NCBI GenBank assembly: GCA_038212095.1
Contig: JBBQUW010000010.1
Span: 11,084 to 75,083 of the forward strand
Direction of reading: 5' to 3'
Source: Gaiellales bacterium
Lineage (GTDB): Bacteria; Actinomycetota; Thermoleophilia; Gaiellales; JAICJC01
DNA: 64,000 bases
The notes beneath the pieces are model-generated. The model searched no databases and was not told the DNA's origin. It worked only from the letters and a program-made list of their open reading frames with translations. Positions 5,992 to 48,317 of the stretch are shown one piece after another. The first letter of the stretch is position 1. The number at the start of each line of letters is the position of its first letter. The translations under genes were made by a program, and so were the position numbers.

Positions 5992-6729
5992 ATGGCCACG
6001 CTCCAGAGCACACCTGACGCCTATGGCGCGCTCGGGGCGGACTACGACCGCTGGTGCCGGTCGGTCACCGAGGATATCGACTTCTACGTCGCCCTGGCGC
6101 TCGAATCGGGCGGTCCGGTGCTCGAGCTGGGCGTCGGCTCGGGGCGCATCGCTGTGCCGACCGCGATCGCCGGAGTGCCGGTGGTGGGCGTCGACCTCTC
6201 GATGGAGATGCTCGACCTGGCCTGGGCGCGCGCGCTGCCGCATGGGGTTGGGCTGGGGCTGGTACGGGCCGACATGAGAGCACTTCCCGACCTGGGCCGC
6301 TTCGCACTGGTGACGGTCCCGTTTCGCGCACTGCTGCATCTGCGCGACGACCAGGAGCGGATGGCGGTGCTGACCGCCGCCCGGGATCGGTTACTGCCGG
6401 GCGGACGGCTGGCGTTCGACGTCTTCCACCCCGACCGGATCGATATCGAGGAGACACATGGACGATGGCTGGAACGCGAGCCGGGCATCCAAGAGCGCGC
6501 CCTCTGGCGCCCTGAGGAGCGCAGCCTGACGCTGTCGGTGCGGACAGAGCACCGCCAATCGACTATGGAGCTCTGGTGGGTCGAGCCACGCAGATGGGCT
6601 GGCCTGCTCGCCCAGTGTGGATTCTCGACGATCGAGTCCTACGGCTGGTTCGATGGCCGTGCTTTGGCGGTCGGCAGTGCAGACTCGGTATGGGTCGCAG
6701 CAGCAACGGCGGCCGCGGCGCCTGGTTGA
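5992..6729 (+). CDS. class I SAM-dependent methyltransferase
   Basis: 245 aa with SAM motif [15 protein letters not shown] and post-I VVGVDLS. The 3' 167 nt overlap the convergent 6563-8077 ORF. Confidence 0.8.
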
Positions 6730-26847: not shown

Positions 26848-28035
26848 ATGCTGGCGATCACGATCGTGCTGGCGGTGCTGCTGGCGCTCGCGCTGGCGAC
26901 GATCGCGCGCCGCGAGATCGAGCGGCGCCGCGCGCTGGCGACGCTGGGCGGCAACGACCTGGCGGCGTCCGCGCGGATGGCGATGGAGGGCCGCTGCGAC
27001 CGCTCCCAGCTTGATGCGGCGCTGGCGCTGCGCGACGCGATCATGGCGGCCTCCCCCACGCCGGTGCTGCTGTTCGATCGCTCGGCGCGGCTGGTGCGAA
27101 CCAACGACGCCGCCCGGGAGGCGCTCCCGGATATGGAGATCGGCGCCACGCTCGCGTTGCAGCGAGTGGCTACGGCGGTGCATGAGGCGTTGGCCGGGCG
27201 TCAGCCACGCCCGTTCGAGGTGACGGTGTACGAGCCGGAGCGGCGCCGGTTCCACGTCCACCTCTCCACCTACAGCGACCAGGGCGCCCGAGCCTGCGCG
27301 GTGGTGCTGGCGGACGAGAGCGCCGAGGCCGACTACCGCGATGCACGGCGACTCTTCTCGGCCGGCGTCTCGCACGAGCTGCGCACGCCGTTGGCGCGGA
27401 TGCTGGCGTTGGTGGACACGCTCTCGCTGCCGCCGGACGAGGCTGAGCGCGAGGAACTGCTGGATCAGATGCGGCGCGAGGTGGACGCGATGCGGCAGCT
27501 GATCGAGGACATGATGCTGCTGACGCGGCTGGAGAGCGAGGGCGTCGGTGAGGGCGAGCTGGTGGACGTCGCCGTAGCGGTGGCAGACAGCGTGCAGCGT
27601 CACGGTTCCGCGGCCCGCGCGGCGGGTATCGGGCTGGACGGCACGGTGCCCGCGGCCGTGGTCACGGTGATGCCGAAGCGGCTGTTCGAGGTCGTGCTGG
27701 ACAACCTGATCGAGAACGCGATCCGCCACGGTGGGCCCGGCACCCGCGTGGACGTGCGCGCCCGCGGCGTTGCCGGCGCAGTCGAGCTGGAGGTCGAGGA
27801 CACCGGCGCCGGCATCCCGGCGGAGCACCTGGGCAAGGTGTTTGAACGCTTCCACCGCGTCGAGGGATCGCGCACGGCGCCCGGCACCGGCCTGGGCCTG
27901 GCGATCGTCAAGCACATCGCCGAAGCACGCCGCGGACGAGTCGCGATCGAGAGCGTCGAGGGGCAGGGCACGACGGTGCGGGTGGTGCTGCCGGCGCCCG
28001 AGGCGGCCGGCGCCGGCTCGGCACCGGCTACGTAA
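26848..28035 (+). CDS. sensor histidine kinase (HisKA / HATPase_c, SenX3/PhoR-like)
   Basis: N-terminal TM helix, a PAS-like segment, H-box FSAGVSHELRTPLARM, N-box LIENAIRHG, G-boxes DTGAGIP and GTGLGLAIV. Confidence 0.85.
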   Translation: MLAITIVLAVLLALALATIARREIERRRALATLGGNDLAASARMAMEGRCDRSQLDAALALRDAIMAASPTPVLLFDRSARLVRTNDAAREALPDMEIGATLALQRVATAVHEALAGRQPRPFEVTVYEPERRRFHVHLSTYSDQGARACAVVLADESAEADYRDARRLFSAGVSHELRTPLARMLALVDTLSLPPDEAEREELLDQMRREVDAMRQLIEDMMLLTRLESEGVGEGELVDVAVAVADSVQRHGSAARAAGIGLDGTVPAAVVTVMPKRLFEVVLDNLIENAIRHGGPGTRVDVRARGVAGAVELEVEDTGAGIPAEHLGKVFERFHRVEGSRTAPGTGLGLAIVKHIAEARRGRVAIESVEGQGTTVRVVLPAPEAAGAGSAPAT

Positions 28036-28063
28036 CGTCGCCTTTGGCCGGTAGAGTTGACCG

Positions 28064-28540
28064 GTGCAGTCCGACCCTCTCGAAGCGGCGTCCAACCCCT
28101 CCGTTGAGCGGTTCTGGCGTGAGTTCGTCGCCGCCACCGGCATCGATGGCCCGTACACCGCATGGGCGTTCGGCAGCGATGCGACCGGGCTCGGCCGGCT
28201 CGTCAGGGACGGTCCCAAGCGGGCCACGGCCAGCAACTACTCATGGTATCGGGACGACGGCGAGCCGATGCCGGCGGTCGGCGAGATCTCGGTGGTGCTC
28301 GACGGCGCCGGCGAGCCCCTGTGCGTGATCCGCACCACCTCGGTCGAGGTGCGACGGTTCGGCGATGTCGACGAGGAGTTCGCGTGGACCGAGGGGGAGG
28401 GCGATCGCAGCCTCGCGCACTGGCGCGAGGCGCACCTCGAGTTCTTCGCCGGCGAGGGTCGCCCGGTTGACGACGAGAGCCAGGTCGTGCTGCAGCGGTT
28501 CGAGCTGCTGTGGCCCGGCGCCGACAACGCCCGTCGCTAG
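28064..28540 (+). CDS. ASCH-domain protein
   Basis: 158 aa: ...GPKRATASNY...VVLDGAGEPLCVIRTTSVEVRRFGDVDEEFAWTEGEGDRSLAHWREAHLEFF, the typical ASCH pattern. Confidence 0.75.
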   Translation: MQSDPLEAASNPSVERFWREFVAATGIDGPYTAWAFGSDATGLGRLVRDGPKRATASNYSWYRDDGEPMPAVGEISVVLDGAGEPLCVIRTTSVEVRRFGDVDEEFAWTEGEGDRSLAHWREAHLEFFAGEGRPVDDESQVVLQRFELLWPGADNARR

Positions 28541-28544
28541 CGCA

Positions 28545-29249
28545 TCACGCCTCCCTCTTCGCCTCCGCGCCGAACCGGTATCCCACCCCGTAGTGCGTCT
28601 GGATGTAGGTGAACCGCGCCGCACGGCGGTCGATCTTGTCTCGCAGCTTGCGCACGCACACGTCGACGGTTCGGTCGCGGTGGCGGTGGGGGATCCCCCA
28701 CACCCGCTGCTGCAGCTGGTCGCGCGACAGCGCCTTGCCATGCTCGCTGGCCAGCACGTACAGCAGCCGAAACTCGGTCGCGGTCAGGCCAACGTCCTCG
28801 CCGTCCAGCAAGGCAGCGTGCAGGTCGGGGTCGATCACCAGCCCGTCCACCTCGATCCGCTCGGCGCCCGCGCTGGCGGGTGACATGCCGGCCCGCCGCA
28901 GCACCGCCTCGACCCGCGCCACCAGCTCGCGCATGCCGAACGGCTTGGAGAGATAGTCGTCCCCGCCGATGCCGAGCGCGTGCACCTTGTCGTGCTCCGA
29001 GCCCCGCGCGCTGACGATCACGATCGGCGTCTCGATGCCCTCGCCACGCAGCGTCTCGACGATGCTCCAGCCATCCGTGCCAGGCAGCATCAGGTCGACC
29101 ACCGCGACGTCCGGCCGCTCGAACCGCAGCTTGGCCAGCGCGCGGTCGCCGTCCTCGGCAACCTCGACGTCCATGCCCGCCCGGCGCAGGTGCGTGGCCA
29201 TCGCATTTGCGATCACGCGGTCGTCCTCTGCGATCAGTACCCGTGGCAT
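28545..29249 (-). CDS. OmpR/PhoB-family response regulator
   Basis: MPRVLIAEDD...VVDLMLPGTDG...SKPF receiver domain plus a winged-helix output (LTATEFRLLYVLA...VGYRF). Confidence 0.9.
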   Translation of the reverse strand: MPRVLIAEDDRVIANAMATHLRRAGMDVEVAEDGDRALAKLRFERPDVAVVDLMLPGTDGWSIVETLRGEGIETPIVIVSARGSEHDKVHALGIGGDDYLSKPFGMRELVARVEAVLRRAGMSPASAGAERIEVDGLVIDPDLHAALLDGEDVGLTATEFRLLYVLASEHGKALSRDQLQQRVWGIPHRHRDRTVDVCVRKLRDKIDRRAARFTYIQTHYGVGYRFGAEAKREA

Positions 29250-29274
29250 GAGATGGCCAATGGTAAACGGGACC

Positions 29275-29384
29275 AGAGATTCGCCGCCCCGGCTTGCCTT
29301 TTGTCCCTCGATCGAACGGACTTTCGAGTCACCTCTACGGCCCGTCCGCTCGGTTTCAACCTACTCGGCTGCCCTGAGCGGCGC
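29275..29384 (-). promoter_or_regulatory. candidate structured 5' leader RNA (riboswitch-like), copy 1, upstream of the response regulator
   Basis: Gap-free 110-nt match (93/110 by my count) to 29873-29982. The minus-strand fold has a closing helix CGCCGCU/GGCGGCG, hairpin GGU-UGAA-ACC, an 8-bp helix GAGCGGAC/GUCCGUUC, and hairpin GAG-GUGA-CUC (GNRA loop). Confidence 0.5.
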
Positions 29385-29391
29385 ACACGGG

Positions 29392-29420
29392 AACATACGA
29401 CCGGGTGCCCCACCCTGCAA
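29392..29420 (-). promoter_or_regulatory. predicted promoter for leader copy 1
   Basis: The minus strand reads TTGCAG - 17 nt - TATGTT. The -10 box ends 7 nt before the first conserved leader nucleotide. Confidence 0.4.
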
Positions 29421-29461
29421 GCCACAACGTCGCAAAATGCGAACGTTTTGTGCCGCCGTGG

Positions 29462-29866
29462 TCACCAGCGGTCGAGCACCTCACGATCTCGGTCGTAGCT
29501 GAGCAGCTCGCGAGCGGCCGCCCGGTCGAGCCAGCGCAGCTCGTCCACCTCATCGCCCGGTTCGAACTCGCCGCCCTGGTCTCGCATCACGAAGTAGCGC
29601 ACCACCTTCGGTGCCACCACCCCGCGCCGCTCTGTCAGGTACTCGATCGTCCCCAGGTCGCGCTCGATCACGCCGGTGTGGCCCGTCTCCTCCCACACCT
29701 CGCGCCGCGCCGCCGCGCGATCATCTTCGCCCGGATCGTTCTTGCCCTTGGGCAGCGTCCAGTCGTCGTAGCGCGGCCGGTGGACGATCGCGACGGCACC
29801 GTCACGCACCAGCACGGCGCCGGCGGCACGGACGATATCGGGGGGAGCCTCTGCCATCGCCTGCAC
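29462..29866 (-). CDS. NUDIX hydrolase (MutT1-type N-terminal-domain-like)
   Basis: Nudix box GKNDPGEDDRAAARREVWEETG, flanking AAGAVLVRDGAVAIVHRPRYDDWTLPKG and LSYDRDREVL. The start is GTG 29866 or ATG 29857. Confidence 0.85.
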   Translation of the reverse strand: MQAMAEAPPDIVRAAGAVLVRDGAVAIVHRPRYDDWTLPKGKNDPGEDDRAAARREVWEETGHTGVIERDLGTIEYLTERRGVVAPKVVRYFVMRDQGGEFEPGDEVDELRWLDRAAARELLSYDRDREVLDRW

Positions 29867-29872
29867 GATTAA

Positions 29873-29982
29873 AGAGGTTCGCCGCCCCGGCTTGCCTTTC
29901 GTCCACCGGCCGAACGAACCTTCGGGTTGCCCCTACGACCCGTCCGCCCGGTTTCAACCTACTCGACTGCCCTCGGCGGCGC
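29873..29982 (-). promoter_or_regulatory. candidate structured 5' leader RNA (riboswitch-like), copy 2, upstream of the NUDIX hydrolase
   Basis: Paralog of 29275-29384. Same fold with compensated differences: hairpin GGG-GCAA-CCC instead of GAG-GUGA-CUC, closing pair C-G instead of U.G, helix GGGCGGAC/GUUCGUUC. Confidence 0.5.
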
Positions 29983-29988
29983 AGACAC

Positions 29989-30017
29989 ACCGTACGTCAC
30001 GCGTCCACGAATTGCAA
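29989..30017 (-). promoter_or_regulatory. predicted promoter for leader copy 2
   Basis: The minus strand reads TTGCAA - 17 nt - TACGGT. The -10 box ends 6 nt before the first conserved leader nucleotide. Confidence 0.4.
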
Positions 30018-30057
30018 GCGCAGAAGCGGCGCCATATCGAGTGCCGCGGAGGAGTCG

Positions 30058-30513
30058 CTACGCTCGTCGTCGCGGGCCCAGCCCGGCGACCCAGAACACC
30101 AGGCCGACGAGGCCAACCAGGCCCAGCACGAGCGCCGAGAAGCCCCACAGCAGGCCGCGGTCGCCGCCGACGATCACGCCCACCACCAGCATCGCGATCG
30201 CCAGCACGCCGAACGCCTGGGTGGCGACGAACGGCCCCGGCAGCCCGGCCGGCGTGATCGGCGTCGCGGCACGGCTCAGCCGACTGGGATCGGCCTCGTC
30301 CTTGCGCCGGCTGCGCACGGCAAGCGCGACGATGCCGCCGAGCACCACCAGCACATAGATCACCTGTGACCAGAAGTCGCCCACCCAGTCCACCAGGTAT
30401 GTGAACAGCACGATCAGGCCGACCGCGGCGGCGGTTGCCCCCACCGCCACGCCGATCGACGTCTGCCAGTCGTACACCGCCGGCGGCTGTCGCTGCTCGC
30501 TCATCGCTGGCAA
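30058..30513 (-). CDS. integral membrane protein (4 predicted TM helices)
   Basis: 151 aa with hydrophobic stretches IGVAVGATAAAVGLIVLFTYLV, VIYVLVVLGGIVALAV, AFGVLAIAMLVVGVIVGG, GFSALVLGLVGLVGLVFWVAGL. Confidence 0.6.
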   Translation of the reverse strand: MPAMSEQRQPPAVYDWQTSIGVAVGATAAAVGLIVLFTYLVDWVGDFWSQVIYVLVVLGGIVALAVRSRRKDEADPSRLSRAATPITPAGLPGPFVATQAFGVLAIAMLVVGVIVGGDRGLLWGFSALVLGLVGLVGLVFWVAGLGPRRRA

Positions 30514-48244: not shown

Positions 48245-48317
48245 TGGGCGGTACTGGGCTCGAACCAGTGACCCCCAGCTTGTCGAGCTGGTGCTCTCCC
48301 AACTGAGCTAACCGCCC
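48245..48317 (-). tRNA. tRNA-Val (anticodon GAC), no encoded CCA
   Basis: GGGCGGT-TA-GCTC-AGTTGGGA-GAGC-A-CCAGC-TCGACAA-GCTGG-GGGTC-ACTGG-TTCGAGC-CCAGT-ACCGCCC-A. All four arms pair perfectly. The anticodon loop reads U-C-G-A-C-A-A. Confidence 0.9.

Follow-up and report, generated by a model that had tools for sequence, protein, structure and literature searches.

The window analyzed here, a stretch of 64,000 nucleotides from a contig of a Gaiellales bacterium, contains two genes that are each preceded by a similar intergenic sequence. All window features given below by coordinates lie on the minus strand unless stated otherwise. The first gene (28545–29249) encodes an OmpR/PhoB-type response regulator with Pfam Response_reg and Trans_reg_C domains, the best NCBIfam match of which, PhoB, was below the cutoff. 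The second (29462–29866) encodes a NUDIX hydrolase similar to the MutT1 N-terminal domain, with a Pfam NUDIX match and an NCBIfam MutT1 match below the cutoff; its start in the database is the ATG at 29857, giving 131 amino acids, and P0001 was identical to this protein at 100%. Direct comparison of the two intergenic copies, designated copy A (regulator side) and copy B (NUDIX side), showed that 93 of 110 positions were identical between 29275–29384 and 29873–29982, the same number as in the preliminary description of this DNA, and a repeat search gave 84% identity over 114 nt (29275–29388 and 29873–29986). The conserved 17-mer and 20-mer were found at only these 2 sites in the 64 kb, where 0.00–0.05 were expected by chance. 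A covariance model built from homologues and run with the filters off also matched only these two sites, both on the minus strand, with scores of 127.3 bits (E = 2e-30) for copy A (29277–29385) and 122.6 bits (E = 3.3e-29) for copy B (29875–29983), whereas the opposite strand scored 17.8 bits. The proposal of two paralogous structured RNAs read from the minus strand was thus upheld. When counted from the first to the last base of the closing helix P1 (alignment columns 1–105), the RNA core extends over 29281–29385 in copy A and 29879–29983 in copy B. These results indicated that both repeats are genuine members of a family of RNAs of about 110 nt in soil Gaiellales.

The homologues gathered, approximately 200 with 95 distinct cores, came without exception from genomes of Gaiellales/Thermoleophilia or from soil metagenomes; because all of them were retrieved by sequence patterns drawn from the motif itself, this collection carries an ascertainment bias. 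The structure was analyzed with the 95 cores, the promoters with 165 or 170 distinct upstream regions, and the region ahead of the regulator gene with 48 spacers. The family was shallow: in 942 kb of collected loci, every full-length copy scored at least 93 bits with nhmmer and no divergent copies were found. The invariance of P1 and P2 may therefore partly reflect short divergence. Distant NUDIX loci (L175–L178) carried the same RNA and added no depth to the family. Each MAG had roughly three copies spread over different contigs, and complete modules also occurred in tandem. Repetition within genomes, together with a palindrome upstream of the RNA, would be expected of an element acting at the DNA level, for example a REP/MITE-type repeat or a longer stretch bound by protein, such as autoregulation sites of the regulator. 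However, the high-copy repeat that had been considered at the outset does not agree with two copies in 64 kb and about three per MAG, terminal inverted repeats were absent, BLAST searches of 72,556 plasmid and 50,697 phage records gave no match, and the paired positions showed compensatory covariation with tolerance of G-U. The DNA-level explanation is largely refuted, and we give it next to no weight.

A search of the whole window against Rfam 15 (4227 models, including ykkC, c-di-GMP-I/II, ydaO, glycine, ZTP, raiA, 6S, SRP, Y RNA, and 5S) at gathering thresholds detected one tRNA only. When hits with E up to 10 were accepted, the region 29200–30100 and the isolated 131-nt element, the latter on both strands, gave only chance matches with snoRNAs and lncRNAs. 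The sequence had earlier been left unmatched to ykkC, GEMM, and the other classes compared, and no Rfam family was found for it at either threshold; the RNA family is previously uncatalogued. The literature was also searched for riboswitches of Gaiella or Thermoleophilia, with no result. The ykkC subtype 2c, a riboswitch for nucleoside diphosphates that is associated with NUDIX genes, was rejected as a candidate, since models of the RF00442 type, which recognize the ykkC fold of P1-P1a-P1b plus P2 and P3, gave no match at E up to 10 and the present RNA is a single unbranched hairpin. The likeness consists of the association with a NUDIX gene and of the strings AGGGnnnCCG, GGGAYAAAAG, and CAGGGCA, which we take to be shared with ykkC 2c or c-di-GMP-I (GEMM-I), but the present RNA has neither the P3 hairpin nor the three-helix junction. 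Resemblances of short strings to GEMM-I, ykkC, Y RNA, 5S loop E, 6S, SRP, and T-box were also discarded, as none passed a model test or matched in topology.

In the family alignment, 96.8% of 2943 cells were paired in one long unbranched hairpin, and 12 pairs had compensatory double changes (111 cells). None of 500 shuffles attained the observed value on any of five measures, and controls with slid registers showed 20–45% pairing. RNAalifold independently predicted helices P1, P2a, P2b, P4, and P5. The MFE z-scores of the single sequences were weak (−1.4 and −1.8), and MFE alone is therefore insufficient support for the structure. A conserved and covarying structured domain, as is expected of a cis-acting leader or riboswitch, was present in the family. 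In copy A, the 5′ strand of P1, CGCCGCUC (29376–29383), pairs with GGGCGGCG (29282–29289) according to the family structure counts, and this helix, which had been proposed from the two copies, covaried across the family at positions 8/100 (CG 79, UA 13, UG 3), 9/99 (CG 52, UG 27, UA 16), and 10/98 (CG 49, GC 8, AU 2, UA 1). P2a and P2b are formed by GGC-A-GCC (29367–29373) and the opposite strand GGC-AA-GCC, GGCAAGCC (29291–29298), as indicated by both the family counts and RNAalifold, and pair 17/91 was GC in 85, GU in 8, and AU in 2 sequences.

P4 of copy A (29340–29353 with 29308–29321), also assigned from the family counts and RNAalifold, had 11–15 bp in the register i+j=111 (A2 alignment columns), in which 98.3% of the cells were paired and six pairs were compensatory. 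Pairs 35/77 (GC 70, AU 22) and 42/70 (CG 61, GU 15, GC 8, UG 5) varied across the family, and pair 36/75 changed from A-U in copy A to G-C in copy B. The 8-bp helix of the preliminary description corresponds to the register i+j=107, in which 91.6% were paired compared with 98% at i+j=111, and the double changes C42G/G69C contradict it. The hairpin GGU-UGAA-ACC proposed at the same time was 85.6% paired, its inner pair failed in 32 of 95 sequences, and it was absent from the RNAalifold prediction; a K-turn accounts better for the invariant G29-A30-A31 facing G81-G82-A83. A pairing of GUU with GAC in the MFE structure (columns 26–28 with 81–83) was not adopted, as columns 26–28 vary and columns 81–83 are invariant. 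The P5 hairpin of copy A, GAG-GUGA-CUC (29326–29335), carries a GNRA loop and is flanked by an invariant GUA/GAA 3 × 3 loop; copy B has the same fold with GGG-GCAA-CCC as P5. This GNRA-capped hairpin had been recognized correctly, since pair 53/60 covaried (AU 74, GC 16, GU 5) and the loop fitted GNRA in all 95 sequences (GCGA 55, GUGA 27, GCAA 8, GAGA 4, GGGA 1).

The internal loop between P2b and P4 consists in copy A of GAGUAG GUU GAA (29355–29366) and GGGAC-AAAA-G (29298–29306). Residues A21, G22, U23, A24, G25, G29, and A30 on the 5′ side and G81, G82, A83, C84, A86, A87, A88, and G89 on the 3′ side were invariant in 95/95 sequences, N27 was variable, and Y28 was C in 48 and U in 47. A K-turn (Kt-7 in the Lilley nomenclature) has a Watson-Crick C-helix pair, a 3-nt bulge, and tandem G·A/A·G pairs, with A·G at 3b·3n. 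At the sequence level, this signature was present: RNAalifold predicted the G25-C84 pair in 95/95 sequences, G26 (G 86, A 9), N27, and Y28 would form the bulge, and G29, A30, and A31 (95, 95, and 94 sequences) are opposite A83, G82, and G81 (95 each). The loop-E/sarcin-ricin (bulged-G) module consists of 5′-AGUA-3′ facing 5′-GAA-3′ with flanking Watson-Crick pairs, and its signature was found, again at the sequence level, in A21, G22, U23, and A24 opposite R85, A86, and A87. All of these columns were invariant except R85 (G 81, A 9, C 5), and a second GUA/GAA copy was formed by G49, U50, and A51 opposite G62, A63, and A64. We infer from these signatures that the 5′ side of the loop forms first a loop-E-like module of the AGUA/GAA type and then a K-turn bulge with tandem G·A pairs, and that the GNRA loop may dock elsewhere in the RNA.

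Upstream of copy A, a −35 hexamer, TTGCAG (29415–29420), of which the family consensus retains TTGCA, was followed by a −10 hexamer, TATGTT (29392–29397), ending 6 nt ahead of the first conserved base. Copy B had TTGCAA (30012–30017), with CTTGCAATT common to the NUDIX-type copies, and TACGGT (29989–29994), which ended 5 nt ahead of the first conserved base. Both pairs of hexamers were separated by 17 nt (TTGnnn-17-TAnnnT). A generic sigma-70 scan of the window called no promoter at either copy because the hexamers match TTGACA/TATAAT too weakly. The geometry TTGnnn-N16-19-TAnnnT-N5-6 was kept in 170/170 distinct homologous upstream regions, and TAnnnT ended 5–6 nt ahead of column 1 in 165/165 and 170/170 distinct regions. 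In all 170 distinct upstream regions, the predicted transcription start is the first P1 nucleotide. Thus, the earlier suggestion that each copy has its own promoter, with the 5′ end at the first helix, held across the family, and the constant spacing between promoter and 5′ end that is expected of an independent RNA gene was found in 170/170 regions.

Family comparison also revealed a palindromic operator core, CGC-ATTTT-GCG (29431–29441), upstream of the −35 hexamer of copy A with its center at about −51. A CGC-N5-GCG palindrome centered between −48 and −58 (near −52) was present in 147 of the 170 distinct upstream regions, compared with 2.3% of background windows, and the family consensus was TCGCAAAnTGCGnGAA. 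Copy B lacked this palindrome, and no additional significant sites of the operator pattern were found elsewhere in the 64-kb window. Since most copies share the operator, they are probably co-regulated, being switched on together by one DNA-binding protein, as we infer from the upstream sequences. The ClgR operator, which in actinomycetes lies ahead of clpP1P2 and clpC and serves their activation, has a CGC-N5-GCG core (PMC3613350). The palindrome of the 147 copies has the same core and adjoins the upstream side of the −35 hexamer, a position fitting an activator site, but the likeness is limited to the six specified bases of the core. The flanks of TCGCAAAnTGCGnGAA depart from what we take to be the extended Corynebacterium ClgR consensus.

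A plus-strand, terminator-like site called at 29430–29442 by a generic scan is actually this family-wide operator palindrome. The call had been a point for reading the element from the opposite strand, where it would be a hairpin that terminates or stabilizes convergent or upstream genes at their 3′ ends. The position of many copies 5–50 nt past the stop codon of a convergent gene had been another such point. This reading is very improbable, because the covariance model scored 17.8 bits on the plus strand versus 127 bits on the minus strand, the many G-U pairs of the fold would turn into A-C mismatches on the other strand, the GNRA loops and promoters exist on the minus strand only, and no plus-strand gene ends at either copy in the window.

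On the 3′ side of P1, copy A has a pyrimidine-rich tail, AUCUCUGGUCC (29269–29280; family tail class UCUUUGGUCC), conserved in regulator-linked and orphan copies, and the tail of copy B, ACCUCUUUAAUC (29867–29878), abuts the NUDIX start (GTG at 29866 or ATG at 29857). In the family, AAUC(C/U)UUU comes after P1, and the tail is the sole A/U-rich stretch in a region of 69% GC. An alternative pairing of the tail with the hairpin had been suggested, and the base counts were compatible with it (A-U 110, G-C 15, G-U 13, A-C 0); these counts were confounded by a single clade, and a slid control was equally good. Both window copies are physically leaders, as had been described: they lie 21–31 nt from a start codon, with no room for a separate terminator, and a generic scan of the window called no terminator-like site on the RNA strand. 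The lack of space for a terminator implies that the module promoter must read into the NUDIX and regulator genes, unless the rod and its U-rich tail terminate transcription.

The genes downstream of the RNA had no SD sequences. NUDIX-type copies were located 11–28 nt from the start codon without a TANNNT between, and methyltransferase and DUF1989-like genes likewise started 11–29 nt past the RNA without a −10 of their own. The regulator gene had its own −10-like hexamer, TACCAT (29260–29265), 10 nt ahead of the ATG at 29249. A TANNNT ending 6–10 nt before the ATG of the regulator gene was present in 48/48 distinct spacers of 30–245 nt, compared with a background of 0.5%, and a class III alcohol dehydrogenase gene had a TANNNT near its start like the regulator gene. 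Of the next genes, about 100 were co-directional with the RNA and about 70 (about 40%) were convergent, the latter including those for adenine deaminase (21), an amino-acid permease (22), and a methyltransferase. The adenine deaminase gene was flanked by two antisense copies, and a strong GC hairpin was located directly 3′ of the orphan copies between the adenine deaminase and permease genes. The orientation was therefore independent of the flanking genes, as for an RNA gene; a cis leader would be nearly always co-directional with, and immediately upstream of, its gene, which about 100 versus about 70 instances do not show. The NUDIX-side copy was missing in some relatives (L002–L007). The proposal of a dedicated cis leader co-regulating the regulator and NUDIX genes is unsupported across the family on these points, namely the regulator's own −10 in 48/48 spacers, the missing NUDIX copies, and the convergent 40%.

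We consider the element best explained as a structured RNA unit that is self-contained and co-regulated and that serves some genes, here the NUDIX gene, as a 5′ leader, and assign this explanation a probability of roughly 45%. Each copy would be its own transcription unit with a sigma-70-type promoter, the −10 hexamer ending 5–6 nt ahead of the first paired base, and in most copies (copy A, not copy B) a palindromic operator near −52. The transcript would form a rod that consists, in order from the base, of P1 (8 bp), P2a, P2b, the invariant asymmetric loop, P4 (13–15 bp), the second GUA/GAA loop, and the 3-bp P5 with its GNRA loop. The asymmetric loop may form the AGUA/GAA loop-E-like module and then a Kt-7-type K-turn, the kink of which could bring the GNRA loop into contact with P1, which is invariant and rich in GC. 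It is the RNA itself that would be conserved as the product, and its downstream neighbor would vary by locus: a fused gene without its own promoter, for which the RNA would serve as 5′ leader (NUDIX, copy B), a gene with its own leaderless-type promoter (response regulator, copy A), or convergent genes. Given this varied downstream context, the RNA does not look like a switch reserved for the regulator and NUDIX genes. Instead, one common signal may induce the synthesis of a folded module that binds a protein or ligand, and this module would be set free as a small RNA at orphan loci and remain attached to some mRNAs as their 5′ domain. The 11–29 nt to the starts of the NUDIX, methyltransferase, and DUF1989-like genes count against an RNA unit, being typical of a cis leader. 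Among the families listed for the 47 other ORFs of the window, which were examined for RNA-binding partners, no TROVE, L7Ae, or similar family occurred.

The placement of these start codons, 11–30 nt past P1 in most co-directional cases and in some without another promoter, fits an extended form of the preliminary proposal, in which the RNA would act in cis as a sensor, be it as a riboswitch or through recognition by an RNA-binding protein, and would gate the polymerase arriving from the module promoter. Sense read-through would activate the NUDIX and methyltransferase genes and add a leadered transcript of the regulator, and antisense read-through would lower the convergent adenine deaminase and permease genes; the ligand might be nucleotide-derived. 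We regard this explanation as a strong competitor of the RNA unit, though a somewhat less probable one. Its aptamer-like build (invariant internal loops, GNRA loop, K-turn-like kink, and strong covariation), the several and sometimes tandem copies per genome, as in riboswitch classes, and the nucleotide-related neighbors (NUDIX and adenine deaminase) agree with it, and the closing helix with the U-run of AAUC(C/U)UUU could be a conditional terminator. However, about 40% of the members face a convergent gene, and the strong hairpin right after the adenine deaminase/permease copies argues against regulated antisense read-through. The regulator gene, which lies downstream of the RNA more often than any other, is served by a conserved leaderless-type promoter of its own, and the predicted start of transcription coincides, as is usual for RNA genes, with the first base of P1 in every copy. 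A window scan found no canonical terminator or SD-sequestering platform, and the downstream genes have no single pathway in common. A bolder version, which we think rather unlikely, is a new riboswitch class built of a single hairpin bent by a K-turn with the GNRA loop docked on P1, possibly binding a purine or nucleotide-derived metabolite. It would form a portable promoter-plus-sensor cassette that turns on genes in sense, represses adenine deaminase and permease genes in antisense, and elsewhere acts as a stand-alone, ligand-responsive RNA.

The RNA might also do no more than cap the 5′ end of a promoter cassette passively: the rod would block 5′-end-dependent decay, and the A/U-rich tail would provide a ribosome landing site without an SD sequence, with no sensing involved. 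The beginning of the transcript inside P1, the tail as the only A/U-rich stretch of the 69% GC region, and the downstream genes without SD sequences are consistent with this. Nevertheless, a stabilizer would have no need of at least 40 invariant loop nucleotides together with a GNRA loop and a K-turn-like module, all kept across paralogues, and the orphan and convergent copies would be left unexplained; we consider a passive role improbable.

Riboswitch aptamers such as those of the lysine and SAM-I classes and stem I of the T-box contain K-turns and loop-E modules. The present RNA resembles them in its invariant purine-rich internal loops, K-turn signature, AGUA/GAA modules, and GNRA loop, and in often lying directly 5′ of coding regions. 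It differs in that it has no covariance-model match, is a single hairpin where they have a multi-way junction, faces a convergent gene in 40% of copies, and has no expression platform that we found. The raiA motif RNA is a structured noncoding RNA that was at first regarded as a cis element ahead of raiA. An orientation opposite to neighboring genes has been used as an argument against a cis role for it (PMC10861870). The present RNA is comparable in having a highly conserved, intricate fold, in often lying beside one particular gene, and in a position and orientation that speak against a purely cis role. In contrast to the raiA motif RNA, which is about 200 nt long, single-copy, found in Bacillota and Actinobacteria, and included in Rfam, the present RNA is about 110 nt long, multi-copy, and restricted to Gaiellales, with many copies 11–30 nt from a start codon.

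The Gaiellales, actinobacteria that abound in soil, have almost entirely escaped cultivation, and to our knowledge essentially nothing is known of their RNA biology. A compact RNA of about 110 nt with covariation, putative recurrent 3D modules, a precisely placed promoter, and a common operator core in 147/170 upstream regions constitutes a well-defined new class of noncoding RNA that is amenable to direct synthesis and probing. If it bound a metabolite, it would be a riboswitch class tied to two-component signaling and nucleotide housekeeping; if it bound a protein, it would suggest an sRNA-sequestration circuit in a lineage lacking those already known. It also counsels caution, as one window presented a textbook-like tandem leader, yet family-wide the RNA was not tied to regulator or NUDIX genes.

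Several multi-copy sRNA families are under a dedicated regulator acting through an upstream palindrome, e.g. RsmX/Y/Z under GacA, Qrr under LuxO, and GlmY beside glrK-glrR. Unlike these, the present RNA has no GGA-loop or seed-type features and is a single kinked rod with putative K-turn-like, loop-E-like, and GNRA modules. It is similar to them in having several near-identical paralogues within a genome with a conserved palindrome ahead of the promoter in most copies, and in keeping one copy beside the gene of a two-component system.

The minus-strand repeat described previously, with 93/110 positions identical between 29275-29384 and 29873-29982, was recovered with the same count, and each copy lay directly 5' of a minus-strand gene: copy A (core 29281-29385) of an OmpR/PhoB-type response regulator gene (28545-29249), and copy B (core 29879-29983) of a small NUDIX hydrolase gene (29462-29857 or 29866). 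A repeat search gave 84% identity across 114 nt between the two. The window has a GC content of 69%, and NUDIX homologues with names in public sources put it in or near Gaiellales, class Thermoleophilia. The longest words common to both copies (a 17-mer and a 20-mer) were unique to the two sites in the 64 kb, against a chance expectation of 0.00-0.05. A covariance model recognised these two sites and no others in the window, scoring them at 127.3 and 122.6 bits against 17.8 bits on the reverse strand; a role of the RNA as opposite-strand terminator is very improbable. The promoter-like pairs also stood where they had been placed on the minus strand, TTGCAG (29420-29415), 17 nt and TATGTT (29397-29392) for copy A, and TTGCAA (30017-30012), 17 nt and TACGGT (29994-29989) for copy B. 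The two copies are a real feature; the original observation is confirmed, and its interpretation as a cis-acting, ligand- or protein-responsive leader is partly supported.

A five-helix model was scored on an alignment of 95 RNA cores (A3), consisting, from the base upward, of P1 (columns 3-10 with 98-105), P2a (13-15 with 94-96), P2b (17-19 with 89-91), P4 (35-36 with 76-77 and 38-46 with 66-74), and P5 (52-54 with 59-61). The model was 96.8% paired, compared with 20-45% for slid controls, with 12 pairs changed on both sides (111 cells), and 0 of 500 shuffles equalled the observed value on any of five measures. The alternatives included CG79, UA13, and UG3 at 8/100; CG52, UG27, and UA16 at 9/99; CG49, GC8, AU2, and UA1 at 10/98; GC85, GU8, and AU2 at 17/91; GC70 and AU22 at 35/77; CG61, GU15, GC8, and UG5 at 42/70; and AU74, GC16, and GU5 at 53/60. 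RNAalifold independently recovered all five helices, with P4 longer by 33/79 and 34/78. The fold in the preliminary description needed revision: its 8-bp helix was off by 4 nt in register, pairing in 91.6% as against 98%, and is contradicted by G-C for C-G swaps at 42/69, and its GGU-UGAA-ACC hairpin was 85.6% paired, failed at the inner pair in 32/95 sequences, and was not predicted by RNAalifold. Copies A and B themselves differed by two compensatory A-U to G-C swaps (36/75 and 52/59 in columns of the A2 alignment), and it is extremely improbable that the element is a DNA-level repeat.

Candidate three-dimensional motifs were assigned from the column composition of the 95 sequences. Columns 20-25 (G/A-A-G-U-A-G), opposite columns 84-89 (C-R-A-A-A-G), were essentially invariant and would fit an AGUA/GAA bulged-G (loop-E/sarcin-ricin) module, closed by G25-C84 in 95/95 sequences. 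After this pair came a 3-nt bulge (G26, variable N27, and Y28), and then G29, A30, and A31 facing A83, G82, and G81, all invariant; the bulge and G29-A31 opposite A83-G81 suggest the signature of a Kt-7-type K-turn. Beneath P5, an invariant GUA/GAA 3x3 loop repeated the first module, which explains the internally duplicated look noted earlier. The P5 loop was GNRA in 95/95 sequences (GCGA 55, GUGA 27, GCAA 8, GAGA 4, and GGGA 1). By bending the RNA at this point, a K-turn would lay the P4-P5 arm (about 24 layers) back against the P1-P2 arm (about 22 layers), and the GNRA loop could then dock on the CC:GG stretch that is invariant in P1. The string GAGUAGG (29355-29366, minus strand) is identical to the 3' strand of bacterial 5S rRNA loop E, and the order CAGGGCA ... 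GGGAC(G/A)AAAG (29355-29366 and 29298-29306, minus strand) resembles GEMM-I and ykkC strings; none of the covariance models supported kinship of the RNA with 5S loop E, GEMM-I, or ykkC.

The RNA had been matched to no riboswitch class in the preliminary description, and Rfam scans of both regions recovered no existing family, either at gathering thresholds or at E up to 10. The sole match of the whole window to Rfam 15 at gathering thresholds was a tRNA gene (48245-48317, minus strand, 64.9 bits). At E up to 10, 29200-30100 and the isolated 131-nt element gave only chance snoRNA/lncRNA matches, with no match of the RNA to the ykkC, GEMM, ydaO, raiA, 6S, SRP, Y RNA, and 5S models. Literature searches turned up no riboswitch work for Gaiella or Thermoleophilia. 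The search for homologues relied throughout on sequence patterns derived from the motif itself. A scan of GTDB (one genome per species) with the 20-nt 3' anchor GGACRAAAGGCARGCCGGGG gave 47 loci, of which the real copies all belonged to Gaiellales, Thermoleophilia, or 'uncultured Actinomycetes' MAGs; four loci (L016, L019, L044, and L052), from Bacteroidales, Chloroflexi, an unclassified MAG, and Celeribacter, lacked the rest of the motif, were rejected as chance matches, and gauge the false-positive rate of the anchor. A two-gap pattern, validated beforehand on the loci already collected, found at least 120 soil and rhizosphere contigs in metagenomes, and plasmid and phage collections gave no match to the RNA. 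The collected set held at least about 200 instances, with 95 distinct 109-nt cores among the matches listed. The family was very homogeneous, every full-length nhmmer match scoring at least 93 bits, and about three copies per MAG, on separate contigs, were typical. The regulator-side copy was present on contigs encoding NUDIX homologues of 68-88% identity. The NUDIX-side copy was present in loci L001 and L175-L178 and absent from other lineages, including L002-L007, where only 21 nt separate the upstream gene from NUDIX. The RNA is a new family inside a known kind, the bacterial structured small or leader RNAs; deeper relatives may exist, since retrieval was pattern-based, and ascertainment and short divergence account for part of the invariance seen in P1 and P2.

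Directly before column 1, TTGnnn-N16-19-TAnnnT-N5-6 was present in 170/170 distinct upstream regions, and this fixed spacing puts the predicted transcript start at or beside the first nucleotide of P1. A CGC-N5-GCG palindrome core, the operator, was found in 147 of these 170 regions and in 2.3% of background windows, centred at about -50.5 or -52.5, with the extended consensus TCGCAAAnTGCGnGAA. In copy A the palindrome (29429-29443; core CGCATTTTGCG, 29441-29431, minus strand) lay just upstream of the -35; most NUDIX-side copies, copy B among them, had no such palindrome. A plus-strand terminator called by a generic scan proved to be this copy A palindrome. The published activator core of ClgR is CGC-N5-GCG (PMC3613350), equal to the operator core, a resemblance of six bases that is only a lead.

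Genes at the loci were called by GC3-based ORF picking, with Pfam on representatives. The next gene was co-directional in about 100 cases and convergent in about 70. Co-directional genes were the regulator (58 instances), NUDIX (11), class III alcohol dehydrogenase, SAM-dependent methyltransferases, a DUF1989-like protein, and small or membrane proteins; convergent ones included adenine deaminase (21), amino-acid permease (22), and a methyltransferase whose stop codon lay 5-7 nt past the RNA. In eight loci (L009, L013, L015, L018, L026, L030, L051, and L053; e.g. L015:4359-4427 and 6270-6338), same-strand copies flanked adenine deaminase on both sides, antisense to it and to the upstream permease. 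These loci, in other Gaiellales genomes, carried GGDEF-EAL and NifU-like genes upstream. A very stable GC hairpin followed the copies between deaminase and permease by about 20 nt. Tandem complete modules of operator, promoter, and RNA, about 262 nt apart, occurred in L130 (2339-2669), L148, L091, L107, L139, and L159, preceding a DUF1989-like gene in the first three.

The RNA stood 30 to 245 nt from the regulator ATG, and TANNNT ended 6-10 nt before that ATG in 48/48 distinct spacers (background 0.5%); in the window the hexamer is TACCAT (29265-29260, minus strand), 10 nt before the ATG. TANNNT just before ATG is a hallmark of the actinobacterial leaderless mRNA promoter, and its presence implies a separate putative promoter of this type for the regulator. 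Copy A sits atop this promoter, so regulator transcripts both with and lacking the RNA can arise. The alcohol dehydrogenase gene likewise carried such a hexamer, TAGACT, 7 nt ahead of its ATG. No TANNNT hexamer preceded NUDIX, the DUF1989-like gene, or one of the methyltransferases, which started 11-29 nt past the RNA, and for these the RNA appears to be the true 5' leader. Both window copies are physically leaders because a separate terminator does not fit before the start codons, and copy B is the sole visible promoter-proximal route into NUDIX. A passive 5' stabiliser is an improbable role.

Operator, promoter, and RNA together form the invariant unit, and what comes after is interchangeable. 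Our best, still tentative, reading (probability about 0.45) is that of a structured RNA that is self-contained and co-regulated, and that probably acts as a folded module binding a protein or ligand, with some genes carrying it fused as a 5' domain. The main rival, somewhat less probable but strong, is a riboswitch-like cis sensor that would gate read-through, in the sense direction for NUDIX and similar genes and in the antisense direction for deaminase and permease. It is favoured by the aptamer-like architecture, by start codons lying a short distance away, and by the AAUC(C/U)UUU run after P1; the convergent copies that have strong downstream hairpins, the regulator's own apparent promoter, and the want of a recognisable expression platform speak against it. 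For the raiA motif RNA, variable orientation to neighbours was counted against a purely cis role (PMC10861870); by the same criteria, the variable orientation seen here disfavours such a role.

Near copy A, a PhoR-like histidine kinase (26848-28540 region, plus strand) was convergent with the regulator, with an ASCH-domain gene (28064-28540) between them; in the close relative L001 (5309-5911) an ANTAR-domain gene took the position of the latter. The ANTAR domain binds RNA, and ASCH is a putative RNA-binding domain. A direct repeat unrelated to the RNA (28-284 and 1224-1480; 257 nt, 77% identity, 1196 nt spacing) lay near or overlapped a peptidase M29 gene (992-2191).
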